Positions 3,341 to 56,423 of a stretch of 64,000 nt of DNA are shown here, one piece after another (position 1 is the stretch's first letter; each line of letters opens with the position of its first letter). The stretch spans positions 29,636,001 through 29,700,000 of the forward strand of contig OZ024750.1 in NCBI GenBank assembly GCA_964016885.1, read 5' to 3'. The notes under the pieces are model-generated. The model worked only from the letters and a program-made list of their open reading frames with translations. It was not told the origin of the DNA and did not search any database. The position numbers were made by a program, and so were the translations under genes. Origin of the DNA: Eledone cirrhosa (taxonomy: Eukaryota).

Positions 3341-3385
<45 letters not shown>

Positions 3386-11148: not shown

Positions 11149-11253
11149 GGCTCTCAGAGTTCTTTCGTCAAACACCTGTGACATCATCAGTGATAATAAT
11201 ATATAGTATCATTGATGATGTCACAGCTGTGTGACGAAAGAACTCTGAAAGCC
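11149..11253. ncRNA. Palindromic element in (TA)n carrying a divergent pair of type I hammerhead ribozymes
   Basis: Minus: UCA CUGAUGA U GUCA..UGAC GAAA GAAC UC/UGA (core 11190-11184, GAAA 11166-11163). Plus: UCA UUGAUGA U GUCACA GCUG UGUGAC GAAA GAAC UC/UGA (C3U variant). Confidence 0.75.
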
Positions 11254-23212: not shown

Positions 23213-23460
23213 TAAGAAAGATGCTGAGGTTACATAAATCGTTTATTCATTATAATTATTTCAACGGTTCTCCCATGCAATCAAGATGTAATTCATGCAT
23301 TTGTTGTTGTTATGCCGGCGGCATATCACAAAATCGAATTTCATCCGAAGATACCGTTCTCATAACAACAACAAATGCATGAATTACATCTTAATTGCAT
23401 GGGAGAACCGTTGAAATAATTATAACGAATAAACGATTTATGTAACATCAGTATCTTATT
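23213..23460. mobile_element. Foldback element with about 100-bp arms and degenerate hammerhead-like motifs
   Basis: Arms about 23213-23313 and 23361-23460; CAU CUUGAUUGC AUGG GAGAA CCGU U GAAA UAAUUA UA/AUG with palindromic stem III but non-canonical core. Confidence 0.6.
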
Positions 23461-25210: not shown

Positions 25211-25287
<77 letters not shown>

Positions 25288-25297
25288 ATATATATAT

Positions 25298-25505
25298 AAC
25301 GGAGGAAATGTGGTAAGGAACCAGGTGGACCATAACGCACCAAAGTACTCAATACTTAGGATAGTAGAGTGGGTAATAGGAACGAGTAGGACCCCGACGG
25401 CTGAGCTCAAGCCATTTCGACGGCTAATTCTGGACCCTTAGACCCGGTTCAGAATTAGCCGTCGAAACGGCTTGAGCTCAGCTGTCGGGGTCCTACTCGT
25501 TCCTA
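25298..25505 (-). mobile_element. Foldback element in (TA)n with two hammerhead 3' halves (family D)
   Basis: Palindrome 25376-25505; GAA ACGGCU UGAGCUC AGC(C/U)GU C/GGGGUCC on both arms; CUGANGA absent; tail 25298-25375 contains GAGTAC. Confidence 0.75.
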
Positions 25506-25807
25506 TATATATATATATATATATATATACATGATGGCTGTAAACTCTGCTAAGAGTACTGCAATCGCTTGTCATATTATAGAGTTTAGTGCACTTTTAG
25601 GCTACGGCCAGCCGCACGAACCTGTAACATATCCTGAACAAGCAATGCCTGTGCTTTGAAGGTTTTTTAAGTGGGGAAAGGCCTTGCACTCGACCAACCC
25701 CACTCTCTGAGCATCAAAAACACTACCCGAAAAGGAGAACTGGTCAACATCATCGGATACTTCCGAAGCTGCAGGTTTTTTTTTCTTTTTCAGTGTTTCC
25801 CTCTCCT

Positions 25808-30880: not shown

Positions 30881-31024
30881 ACACACACACACACAACTAT
30901 GTCAGAAACGATAGAAATATAAGATATATATATATATACACACTACAACACTACCACACCATACTACACTACCACCACACCGCCCTACCACACGCGATAG
31001 AAACATAAGATATATGCGTGTGTG

Positions 31025-31220
31025 GTTTCTACAGGACTAGAACTGTTTTATTCGAAGGAAATCTTCAAGAAAGCGATGATTTCCTTCGAATGAAACAGTT
31101 CTAGTCCTGTAGAAGCCATTTTTATATTAAATTTTGTTGTATACACTCTACTAATGTATTGAGTACCTTACTTACTGTGGTTACCCTCGAGATTGAACCC
31201 GAGACTCATTCCCACACACA

Positions 31221-31285
<65 letters not shown>

Positions 31286-31465
31286 GTTTATCTCGGGTTC
31301 AATCGGGGGTAACCAGAGTAAGTAAGGTACTCAATACATAGCAAAGTATAAATATTTAATATATAAATGGCTTCTACAGGACTAGAACTGTTTCATTCGG
31401 AAGAAATCACCAGGAAAGCCCTTTCCTGGTGATTTTTTCCGAATGAAACAGTTCTAGTCCTGTAT
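31025..31465. mobile_element. Two family C foldback HHR elements arranged tail-to-tail around (CA)n
   Basis: Hairpins 31027-31113 and about 31376-31464; motif UUUC CUG(G)UGA UUUC UUCC GAAU GAA ACAG UUCUAGUC CUGU A/GAAG; tails with GAGTAC at 31161 (+) and 31327 (-). Confidence 0.75.
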
Positions 31466-42778: not shown

Positions 42779-42831
<53 letters not shown>

Positions 42832-42860
42832 CCCACTCTACTACCCCAAGTATTGAGTAC

Positions 42861-44990
42861 TTGTTATCCTAGTAACTTGTGTATAACTTCCTGCCCATTT
42901 CTCCAGCAATGTCCCGCAAGTCTTTGAGCAATTGTAGTTGTTATCCTAGTAACTTGTGTATAACTTCCTACCCAGTTCTCCAGCAATGTCCCGCAAGTCT
43001 TTGAGCAATTGTAGTTGTTATCCTAGTAACTTGTGTATAACTTCCTACCCAGTTCTCCAGCAATGTCCCGCAAGTCTTTGAGCAATTGTAGTTGTTATCC
43101 TAGTAACTTGTGTATAACTTCCTGCCCATTTCTCCAGCAATGTCCCGCAAGTCTTTGAACAATTGTAGTTGTTATCCTAGTAACTTGTGTATAACTTCCT
43201 GCCCTTTTCTCCAGCAATGTCCCGCAAGTCTTTGAGCAATTGTAGTTGTTATCCTAGTAACTTGTGTATAACTTCCTGCCCTTTTCTCCAGCAATGTCCC
43301 GCAAGTCTTTGAGCAATTGTAGTTGTTATCCTAGTAACTTGTGTATAACTTCCTGCCCTTTTCTCCAGCAATGTCCCGCAAGTCTTTGAGCAATTGTAGC
43401 TGTTATCCTAGTAACTTGTGTATAACTTCCTGCCCATTTCTCCAGCAATGTCCCGCAAGTCTTTGAGCAATTGTAGTTGTTATCCTAGTAACTTGTGTAT
43501 AACTTCCTGCCCTTTTCTCCAGCAATGTCCCGCAAGTCTTTGAGCAATTGTAGCTGTTATCCTAGTAACTTGTGTATAACTTCCTACCCAGTTCTCCAGC
43601 AATGTCCCGCAAGTCTTTGAGCAATTGTAGCTGTTATCCTAGTAACTTGTGTATAACTTCCTACCCAGTTCTCCAGCAATGTCCCGCAAGTCTTTGAGCA
43701 ATTGTAGTTGTTATCCTAGTAACTTGTGTATAACTTCCTACCCAGTTCTCCAGCAATGTCCCGCAAGTCTTTGAGCAATTGTAGTTGTTATCCTAGTAAC
43801 TTGTGTATAACTTCCTACCCAGTTCTCCAGCAATGTCCCGCAAGTCTTTGAGCAATTGTAGCTGTTATCCTAGTAACTTGTGTATAACTTCCTACCCAGT
43901 TCTCCAGCAATGTCCCGCAAGTCTTTGAGCAATTGTAGCTGTTATCCTAGTAACTTGTGTATAACTTCCTACCCAGTTCTCCAGCAATGTCCCGCAAGTC
44001 TTTGAGCAATTGTAGTTGTTATCCTAGTAACTTGTGTATAACTTCCTACCCAGTTCTCCAGCAATGTCTATAACTTCCTACCCAGTTCTCCAGCAATGTC
44101 CCGCAAGTCTTTGAGCAATTGTAGCTGTTATCCTAGTAACTTGTGTATAACTTCCTACCCAGTTCTCCAGCAATGTCCCGCAAGTCTTTGAGCAATTGTA
44201 GCTGTTATCCTAGTAACTTGTGTATAACTTCCTACCCAGTTCTCCAGCAATGTCCCGCAAGTCTTTGAGCAATTGTAGCTGTTATCCTAGTAACTTGTGT
44301 ATAACTTCCTACCCAGTTCTCCAGCAATGTCCCGCAAGTCTTTGAGCAATTGTAGCTGTTATCCTAGTAACTTGTGTATAACTTCCTACCCAGTTCTCCA
44401 GCAATGTCCCGCAAGTCTTTGAGCAATTGTAGCTGTTATCCTAGTAACTTGTGTATAACTTCCTACCCAGTTCTCCAGCAATGTCCCGCAAGTCTTTGAG
44501 CAATTGTAGCTGTTATCCTAGTAACTTGTGTATAACTTCCTGCCCATTTCTCCAGCAATGTCCCGCAAGTCTTTGAACAATTGTAGCTGTTATCCTAGTA
44601 ACTTGTGTATAACTTCCTGCCCTTTTCTCCAGCAATGTCCCGCAAGTCTTTGAACAATTGTAGCTGTTATCCTAGTAACTTGTGTATAACTTCCTGCCCA
44701 TTTCTCCAGCAATGTCCCGCAAGTCTTTGAACAATTGTAGTTGTTATCCTAGTAACTTGTGTATAACTTCCTGCCCTTTTCTCCAGCAATGTCCCGCAAG
44801 TCTTTGAGCAATTGTAGCTGTTATCCTAGTAACTTGTGTATAACTTCCTGCCCTTTTCTCCAGCAATGTCCCGCAAGTCTTTGAGCAATTGTAGCTGTTA
44901 TCCTAGTAACTTGTGTATAACGTCCTGCTTACTTCTCCAGCAATGTCCCGCAGATCATAACTCTTTGAGTAGTTGCAGTTGTTATCCTAG
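42861..44990. repeat. 77-bp minisatellite, about 27 units, derived from RTE-X-like ORF2
   Basis: Unit TTGTTATCCTAGTAACTTGTGTATAACTTCCT..TCTCCAGCAATGTCCCGCAAGTCTTTGAGCAATTGTAG; minus strand reads QRLAGHCWRNGQEVIHKLL. Confidence 0.95.
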
Positions 44991-45794: not shown

Positions 45795-46392
<598 letters not shown>

Positions 46393-46395
<3 letters not shown>

Positions 46396-46558
46396 CGAAG
46401 AAGTTGTGGTAAGGAACCAGATGGACCATAACGCACCAGAGTGGGTAATAGGAAAATGTATGACCCCGACGGCAGAGCTCAAGCCGTTTCGACGGCTATT
46501 TCTGGACTGAAATAGCCGTCGAAACGGCTTGAGCACTGCCGTCGGGGTCATACATTTT

Positions 46559-46562
<4 letters not shown>
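46393..46562 (-). mobile_element. Family D foldback element (hammerhead 3' halves)
   Basis: Palindrome about 46448-46562; GAAACGGCUUGAGC(A/U)CUGCCGUC/GGGGUC. Confidence 0.75.
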
Positions 46563-46602
<40 letters not shown>

Positions 46603-47065: not shown

Positions 47066-47388
47066 ATATAAATATTAATAAAATAGATGTTCTTTTGATC
47101 AATTACATTTTATTATACATATTTCGGATGTACAACAGTACGTCCTCATCAGACAAAATATAATGATACATGACATACCCTGAGATGTTAAATGGTTAAG
47201 ATTTGAAGAGGACGTACTGTTGTACATCCGAAATATGTATAATAAAATGTAATTGATCAAAAGAACATCTATTTTATTAATATTTATATTTTAATATTAA
47301 TAACTCCGGAAAATTATTTCTCCGTAGAGTGCTTCCAATCTACTATAAAACGTATTCTTTGACATAATCATTGAATATCGTTTAACAC

Positions 47389-48090: not shown

Positions 48091-48583
48091 GGAGGTGAGT
48101 TTTATTGTAGCACAATAAAGCAATGCAAATATCGTATAAGTAGCACTCTACAGTTTGTAGGACTGGAGTATAAATAATTGTTTCTACTTTAGGCACAAGG
48201 CCAGCAATTACCCAGTGCATTACTGGTACTTTATTTTATCGACCCCGTAAGGATGAAAGGCAAAGTCAACCTCGGCGGGATTTGAACTCAGATCGTAAAG
48301 GGACGTAACTATGCTGGAAAGCATGGCGTCCGACCCTCTACCGATACTGCCAATCCACCATCCACTGGAGTATAAATAATATAAGATCAAAAGATGGTTA
48401 AAAGTGAAGTTTTAAATCAACATATGTTGATTTAAAACTTCACTATTCACAAGTGTTTTTTAACCTTCATATCATGTATTCCTATTTTATCTGATGAAAA
48501 CGCAGATATCACCTCATGATGATATTTGTTTTTGAAATGCGCATAATAAAATACTTGGAACACTTTTAACCATCTTTTGATCT

Positions 48584-55401: not shown

Positions 55402-55855
55402 GGAAAGTTATATTTAAATTGTTGGGTTACAACGAGTAAATATTTATAACTGATATAAAAGCACTCAACAAGTATTTGGAGTATATTTACGATATTAAAT
55501 AAATGGAAATTATATTTATAAAACCATATTTATTTCATTATATATATTTCAGGGATGACATATTAAAAATATGTTATGCCTTCTTCAGACAAAATACAAT
55601 ATAAACAGTCTTATAAATAAATAGATTCGACATACCTTTCAACTTCGACTTGCATTTGAAAAGTTGATTTGATCAACTTTTCAAATGCAAGTCGAAGTTG
55701 AAAGGTATGTCGAATCTATTTATTTATTTATAAGACTGTTTATATTGTATTTTGTCTGAAGAAGGCATAACATATTTTTAATATGTCATCCCCGAAATAT
55801 ATATAATGAAATAAATATGGTTTTAAAATATAATTTCCATTTATTTAATATCGTA
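55402..55855 (-). mobile_element. Foldback element with about 180-bp arms and two hammerheads
   Basis: Apex at about 55670; minus HHR 55531-55596 (CUGAAGA 55588-82); plus HHR 55748-55813 (CUGAAGA 55756-62, GAAA 55794-97); tail GAGTGC (-) at 55461. Confidence 0.9.
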
Positions 55856-55890: not shown

Positions 55891-56246
<356 letters not shown>

Positions 56247-56247
<1 letters not shown>

Positions 56248-56423
56248 GTTATTCCGGGTTGAATCAGAGGTAACCACAGTAAGTAAGGTACTCAATACAT
56301 AGCAGAGTATAAAAGTTTTAATATAGATGAGATTCTACAGGACTAGGACTGTTTCATTCTTTAGAAATTCCTGATGATTTCTAAAGAATGAAACAGTTCT
56401 AGTCCTGTAGAATCTCATCTATC

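Follow-up and report, generated by a model that had tools for sequence, protein, structure and literature searches.

Palindromic insertions in the genome of Eledone cirrhosa are 5' fragments of a Penelope-like element and were probably formed by end joining of two target-primed cDNAs

The 64,000-nt stretch of the Eledone cirrhosa genome analysed here (contig OZ024750.1; hereafter, the window) carries three palindromes of one repeat family, family D, at 25376-25506, ~46448-46563 and ~56112-56210, that is, where an earlier reading of the sequence (hereafter, the original prediction) had located them. In copy 1, a segment of 80 nt (25296-25375) stays unpaired and precedes a hairpin of 60 bp whose centre measures 11 nt; (TA)n flanks the copy on both sides. 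Folded as DNA, this hairpin has a z-score of -16.5 and none of 200 shuffled sequences folded equally well. The earlier description was incomplete in that the element includes the unpaired tail and sits in (TA)n. Its claim that the arms carry the 3' half of a hammerhead is borne out by five matches of the corresponding 23-nt motif in the window vs. none in 100 shuffles. The parts of the three insertions are listed in Table 1, with positions numbered such that +1 is the A of TTAGTC at position 3349 of a natural long copy, L125. The stem III loop of copy 1 (25473-25480) is self-complementary, TGAGCTCA, and could, speculatively, pair two RNAs.

Table 1. Parts of the family D insertions in the window and of their (TA)n targets.
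Feature	Position	Strand	Basis
(TA)n target, left of copy 1	25214..25295	.	
Copy 1, 80-nt PLE tail, between putative RT start site 1 (+61) and site 2 (+141)	25296..25375	-	blastn vs. natural long copy L125
Copy 1, tailed arm, paired part, leader +2 to +61	25376..25435	-	fold and comparison with L125
Copy 1, junction filler, 11 nt, copy-specific	25436..25446	.	sequence, comparison with L125
Copy 1, tailless arm, +2 to +61, ending at putative RT start site 1	25447..25506	+	comparison with L125
Hammerhead 3' half: GAAA, stem III with GAGCTC loop, stem I 3' strand; mirrored on the opposite arm	25464..25491	+	
Predicted hammerhead cleavage point, copy 1	after 25486	+	
(TA)n target, right of copy 1; TAT overlap with arm end	25504..25529	.	
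Lone 36-nt piece of family D tail	42827..42862	+	comparison with L125
Copy 2 (second subfamily), tailed arm reaching +1; internal deletion in tail	46392..46508	-	
Copy 2, tailless arm from +7; blunt +1/+7 join, the commonest junction class	46509..46563	+	
Copy 3, more divergent subfamily, ~80% to L125; tailed arm -, tailless arm +; apex ~56163	56048..56212	.	

Family D is abundant in this 3.0-Gb genome, with 38,075 exact matches to a 22-nt arm motif and at least 15,671 short palindromes (exact inner flanks, spacer of up to 30 nt), and its insertion target is (TA)n. Among the 95 arms of the first pattern sample, 72 were part of short palindromes, 15 continued into common upstream sequence and eight were joined to other DNA. 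The junctions were assessed in 127 palindromes, i.e., the 179 collected minus 48 from similarity-biased searches and four that were not scored as one-tailed; these 127 comprise 42 unselected for the tail, 84 from 90 of the 100 matches listed in a search anchored on the tailed arm, and one from the window. The samples were drawn mostly from the first 75 Mb of a single contig, and arm ends were measured against natural reference copies matched by subfamily. There were 114 distinct junction strings among the 127 palindromes, in agreement with the original prediction that the loops differ; since the arms are nearly constant while the centres vary, each palindrome must have arisen at its own insertion. 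Further, subfamily sites were identical between the two arms of one insertion in 86 of 120 cases vs. 20% between insertions, which fits one RNA copied twice and, equally, snap-back or gene conversion. A MITE or foldback DNA transposon was rejected based on the 114 distinct centres, the one-sided tail and the RT-coding parent described below. A few loci show additional rearrangements: three tailless arms in tandem, each from +2 and with (TA)n-like spacers between them, look like a later segmental amplification (L116), one palindrome centre holds ~110 nt of foreign sequence resembling PLE coding DNA captured between the arms (L223:1393-1505), and long A/T homopolymer runs serve as junction filler in two others (L075, L150).

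Uninverted copies of the family, represented by 6,521 long arms, read in order ACCCC, TTGANAA, G-N-TCGGCTA, a 35-37-nt loop, TAGCCGTC, GAAA, stem III, GTC and GGGGT, an order that makes up an entire type I hammerhead fold, a predicted ribozyme whose core is of the U3-A8 kind. The core was TTGANAA in 27 of 33 distinct long copies, CTGAGAA (a 3-8 mismatch) in four and another sequence in two; all four bases occur at position 7, and G10.1-C11.1, GAAA, UC and the 6-bp helix II were each retained in 32 of the 33. Hence, uninverted copies with ACCCC, a core and a CGGCTA/TAGCCG stem II exist as originally predicted, but with TTGANAA rather than CTGANGA as their core, and it is because of this variant that CTGANGA, which is indeed absent from all three palindromes of the window, had appeared to be missing from the element altogether. 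Searching for CTGANGA upstream of the stem gave 24 matches, all of them junction filler, other elements or composite sequences, and none with both stem I and stem II, a result that by itself would have spoken wrongly against the ribozyme. The structure predicted earlier for the putative ribozyme is thus essentially right. The stems are paired in 96.8% of the cells of a 12-copy alignment, with no compensatory change; the MFE structure of L125:3294-3412 is a three-way junction, recovered in 11 of the 33 long copies, although with z = -0.5 it is no more stable than shuffled sequences. Rfam returned no match in the window at the gathering threshold, and E-value scans gave just microRNA and AT-repeat chance matches. 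Four long copies (L062, L129, L242 and L243) form a subfamily with a mismatched C3/A8 core, predicted to be a weak or dead ribozyme, that has nevertheless made both long and short insertions. Readings by eye as HDV-like, twister or tRNA-SINE sequences were abandoned after the parent element was found. Non-LTR retrozymes are head-to-tail monomers bounded by the hammerhead cleavage site, and were rejected as well since family D arms are head-to-head and start ~42 nt upstream of that site.

The family D palindromes derive from the 5' end of an autonomous Penelope-like element (PLE) whose protein has Hydra-clade motifs. At the L125 locus (G000:C1:11225500-11233000), two runs of (TA)n enclose, in this order, a tailed copy in inverted orientation, a copy truncated at its 5' end and a full unit; that is, a partial tandem forming pLTRs with an adjacent inverted 5'-truncated copy and a tail on one end, an arrangement shared with 20 other long pairs. 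The intact ORF of this locus (L125:3580-5739, 719 aa) lies within the partial tandem, beside the inverted copy, and has RWR at residue 37, DKT at 117, YRDD, CxCx5C at 572, IY..YIG, CxxC at 670 and CxH at 698; GxK[FY] and CX2-5CxxC were absent from it on motif inspection. Accordingly, a single ORF combines RT (YRDD) with a GIY-YIG endonuclease (IY..YIG), as in EN+ PLEs. HTH_animal is present in the Atlas clusters nearest to the ORF (0.99), GIY-YIG and RVT_1 in other rows, and Pfam and PDB scans of the ORF gave no match, so that the clade call relies on the motifs. An RWK-like motif, DKT, no GxKF/Y, a CxCx5C linker, no CX2-5CxxC, and C-terminal CxxC and CxH are described for Hydra-clade PLEs (PMC8557442), which points to this clade for the parent, and the Neptune clade was ruled out by the same protein motifs. 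A canonical hammerhead and a length generally below 3 kb are also described as typical of Hydra-clade PLEs (PMC8557442), and the parent shows neither, its core being the U3-A8 variant and its unit exceeding 3 kb; since that source presents these two traits as merely typical, we base the putative assignment on the protein. The hammerhead cores of L125 are 3,118 nt apart, and the upstream unit has an extra ~427 nt in its 3' UTR (2488-2915) that the downstream unit lacks, which might represent a deletion or an intron spliced between tandem units.

Each of the 42 unselected palindromes and each of the 21 long inverted pairs had exactly one tail. According to the original prediction, a nascent cDNA that had copied stem II snapped back on that helix and primed its own second strand, the ribozyme fold thus setting the inversion point. 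The apices are in fact not random: they fall in the region of loop II, between the two strands of stem II. The helix that the model needs, CGGCTA/TAGCCG, is present in native copies. However, a snap-back copy is templated by the first cDNA, and therefore the tail-bearing arm must extend further 5' and the native loop must be retained. Instead, the tailed arm was longer in 62 palindromes, the tailless arm in 53 and neither in 12 (strict parsing, p = 0.46), or 56, 57 and 14, respectively, with lenient parsing; the unselected subset gave 17 tailed vs. 21 tailless. Similarly, among the 21 long pairs, two of which (L286 and L295) parse poorly, the tailless arm was longer in 10, the tailed arm in nine and the two were about equal in two, the excess of the tailless arm ranging from 110 to 4,250 nt (e.g., 4,950 vs. 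701 nt in L125). A tailless arm that is the longer one in about half of the insertions cannot be a copy of the tailed cDNA. Four of the 127 junctions formally fit snap-back (tailed arm longer, loop of at least 3 nt, microhomology of at least 2 nt), but six belong to the mirror class, which snap-back cannot produce, none of the 127 retains the native inner loop, short arms hardly ever extend as far as the 5' strand of the helix, which lies ~30 nt upstream of the apex, and the predicted product has a single match genome-wide that, on inspection, had captured other sequence. The recurrent apex pattern GAC(G/A)GCTA, noted originally, merely mirrors the 3' strand, the native 5' strand of stem II being G-N-TCGGCTA. 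Snap-back on stem II is thus largely refuted by arm symmetry, and we regard it as very improbable.

The symmetry could, alternatively, have been imposed later. The centres of palindromes are known to be revised, and a single cDNA might have made a snap-back or perfect palindrome whose apex was subsequently scrambled symmetrically by repair; perfect palindromes do occur (7/127) and, as mentioned above, subfamily variants are common to both arms. This hypothesis cannot account for the 10 of 21 long pairs in which the tailless arm is the longer one, by as much as 4,250 nt. Moreover, 36 copies whose arms are still identical already have 35 distinct junctions, and their symmetry does not exceed that of older copies. 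The hypothesis also leaves unaccounted for both the extra G on tailless arms (see below) and the joins between families; hence, we consider it improbable. The latter joins are found at three loci (L035, L041 and L046, ~1300-1560), where a family D arm is joined head-to-head with one other hammerhead family; the arm of the partner family stops at about the same place in all three chimeras. L1-type twin priming, which gives adjacent, non-overlapping pieces, was rejected as both family D arms cover the same +1 to +61 segment. The junctions themselves were classified as microhomology, blunt or filler in 35, 32 and 60 cases with strict and 71, 19 and 37 with lenient parsing (n = 127), that is, the classes depend on the parsing and the strict filler count is inflated by point mutations. 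Eighteen of the 35 fillers of at least 5 nt contain at least 6 nt of arm sequence, a count inflated by mutated arms.

Of 254 arm ends in the 127 palindromes, 186 fell at +1 to +8 (74 of them at +1/+2), 40 further downstream and 28 upstream of +1, including 11 at -3/-4, which need either a second start or chance matches, and two upstream of -4. The sequence at +1 was TTAGTC in 26 and TCAGT in six of 33 long copies, similar to the initiator of animals, and a box starting with TATT lies 29-31 nt upstream of +1 in all 33, with the exact TATTTAAATA in 12 only. In addition, a non-native G preceded +1 in 2,143 arms genome-wide vs. an A in 636 (the pattern excluded direct joins at +3/+4/+5), while filler is composed of 35% A and 15% G; a G preceded +2 in only 769 arms. 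The extra G could be placed at 25 palindromic loci of the 30 inspected, on 13 tailed and 12 tailless arms; among the 100 matches listed for long arms, no G at -1 was found. Based on the initiator-like site and the TATA-like box, we infer that +1 is a Pol II start inside hammerhead loop II and that the extra G is a copy of the RNA cap, although part of it could be templated (in L271 it matches the stem III loop). Splicing at the AG of +1/+2 onto a fixed exon was rejected, since the bases preceding the extra G vary. Contig depth over the leader, summed over four runs, shows a step near +1 and another near the tail end, a measure that cannot reveal transcript starts. An extra G marks capped, full-length 5' ends of L1 as described elsewhere (PMC11702581; PMC9341517); promoters are described as internal and TATA-less in Penelope (PMC2377424) and as having TATA and Inr-like motifs in rotifer pLTRs (PMC3846280).

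It is also conceivable that two cDNAs were joined as we propose but that their 5' limit reflects RT stalling at, or nuclease cutting in, the extended stem II/loop II. In the MFE fold, loop II does contain an inner hairpin, with +1 in its 3' strand, and some arms end at -1 to -4; yet this hairpin is marginal (-0.3 kcal/mol for the isolated RNA), whereas RT traverses stems I and III and the outer 3' strand of stem II, and stalling yields no G specific to +1. We deem such a limit unlikely, also given the second family described next, whose arms stop outside stem II, ~30 nt after a TATA box. For head-to-head junction palindromes in rotifer Penelope elements, the published reading (PMC3846280) is self-priming on an antisense transcript; this reading predicts neither a sense-strand 5' limit at an initiator-like A with an extra G on both arms nor fixed +61 and +141 ends on the target side, and appears extremely improbable for family D.

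A second PLE-like palindrome family with a one-sided tail is present in the window (31023-31118, 31375-31464 and 56270-56422) and has 27,663 exact arm matches genome-wide, the same anatomy as family D and a canonical CTGATGA core. Of its 15 long copies, 10 have TATAAATA with its first base 30 nt ahead of an A where stem I begins. Among 29 palindrome arms, not one extended more than 1 nt upstream of that A, some of these arms having been measured without a matched subfamily reference. In this family the apex is thus placed where stem I begins, with an intact core downstream of it, which is at odds with the idea that the ribozyme fold sets the inversion point: the apex feature common to both families is promoter-like spacing, not a ribozyme helix. 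The tail of the second family shares the motif GTACTCAATAC with that of family D, possibly a shared RT-binding signal. More palindromes occur at 23218-23457, 46042-46344, 47066-47289, 55613-55727, 11149-11253 and 48403-48444; several of them adjoin (TA)n, some have CTGA(T/A)GA in their arms, and they are probably other PLE families of like build.

We favor the hypothesis, which we hold to be likely, that family D palindromes form when two target-primed cDNAs run off the capped 5' end of an RNA and are then end-joined. Specifically, the endonuclease would cut both strands of (TA)n, and each cut end would prime separate reverse transcription on the leader RNA, one at +61, the base of the extended stem I, and the other at +141. 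The two cDNAs would be extended until they run off the predicted capped 5' end of the RNA, after which their ends would be trimmed and joined, NHEJ or polymerase-theta joining presumably accounting for the trimming, microhomology and templated filler. The favored blunt +1/+7 join (14/127) is not explained by this model. Long and tandem arms would derive from read-through, multimeric or circular RNA. With +1 located within loop II, the transcript would be devoid of the core and the leader would stay uncut. The proposed priming at +61 and +141 matches the two start sites, two-strand extension and predicted dimer described for an Anolis PLE (PMC11167929). A broader version, to which we give somewhat less than even weight, is that a single capped leader RNA serves a PLE dimer as the template for both cDNAs, begun at two fixed sites, that the promoter lies within the ribozyme, the mRNA thus arising without the catalytic core while read-through copies keep it, and that this is the general origin of PLE inverted pLTRs and tails; two fixed start sites, one per target end, would give exactly one tail per insertion.

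Several elements of this picture have precedents. Hydra-clade PLEs as described in PMC8557442 resemble the family D parent in their C-terminal GIY-YIG, RW(R), DKT and CxCx5C linker, absence of CCHH, and CxxC and CxH, as well as in the (TA)n target and an inverted 5'-truncated copy with a tail on one end, but have canonical hammerheads and tails of 30-40 bp, in contrast to the U3-A8 core with a long loop II, the 80-nt tail, the unit of ~3.1-3.5 kb and the preponderance of tiny palindromes (72/95 sampled arms) in family D. The protein of Poseidon PAc of Anolis, a predicted dimer, nicks the two strands and extends each of them (PMC11167929); the shared features are two internal RT start sites that bound the tail downstream of the hammerhead, an AT-rich target and extension of both strands, whereas the same start site was used for both strands in vitro, as reported there, and family D insertions have one site-1 and one site-2 arm. 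Second-strand synthesis and repair are left open for Poseidon PAc in the available text of that paper. The minimal hammerheads of the Schistosoma Cercyon PLE (PMC4209133) share with family D the U3-A8 covariation, G10.1-C11.1, a palindromic loop 3 and a long helix II in which a base close to the 5' end is unpaired, and pairs of such motifs on opposite strands, 100-700 bp apart, are mentioned there; unlike these, family D has a full helix III stem of 5-6 bp and a putative promoter start in loop II. L1 twin priming and end-joined inversions (PMC11702581) are similar in that both target ends are RT-extended, joining is by NHEJ/MMEJ and full-length 5' ends have a cap-derived G, but the twin-primed pieces are adjacent and scarcely overlap, whereas family D arms copy the same 5' segment and hence make a palindrome. 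Finally, the inverted pLTRs of Penelope in Adineta vaga (PMC3846280) are likewise head-to-head, with an optional tail, TATA and Inr-like motifs and junction palindromes; these junctions were read as self-priming, while the junction statistics of family D favor two separate cDNAs.

The class and clade of the element, the inverted-plus-tail anatomy and the U3-A8 core are thus already known, and family D may already be among the Hydra families with hammerheads listed in the supplements of PMC8557442. Our literature search, which largely did not cover subscription journals, found no report of junction evidence or statistics for two cDNAs, of a one-tail rule or of a start site inside loop II, and the origin of PLE inverted and tandem structures and of the tail is stated as unresolved in PMC8557442 and PMC11167929. 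Since family D offers no fewer than 15,671 independent junctions within a single genome, besides an intact ORF and an RNA leader that is short and defined, the question of PLE inversion becomes countable and accessible in vitro. It is also important to note that insertions of this type are easily mis-annotated as MITEs or microRNA hairpins. If the PLE-dimer hypothesis is true, it would replace the self-priming model and would explain why this genome has tiny palindromes of each family by the tens of thousands.
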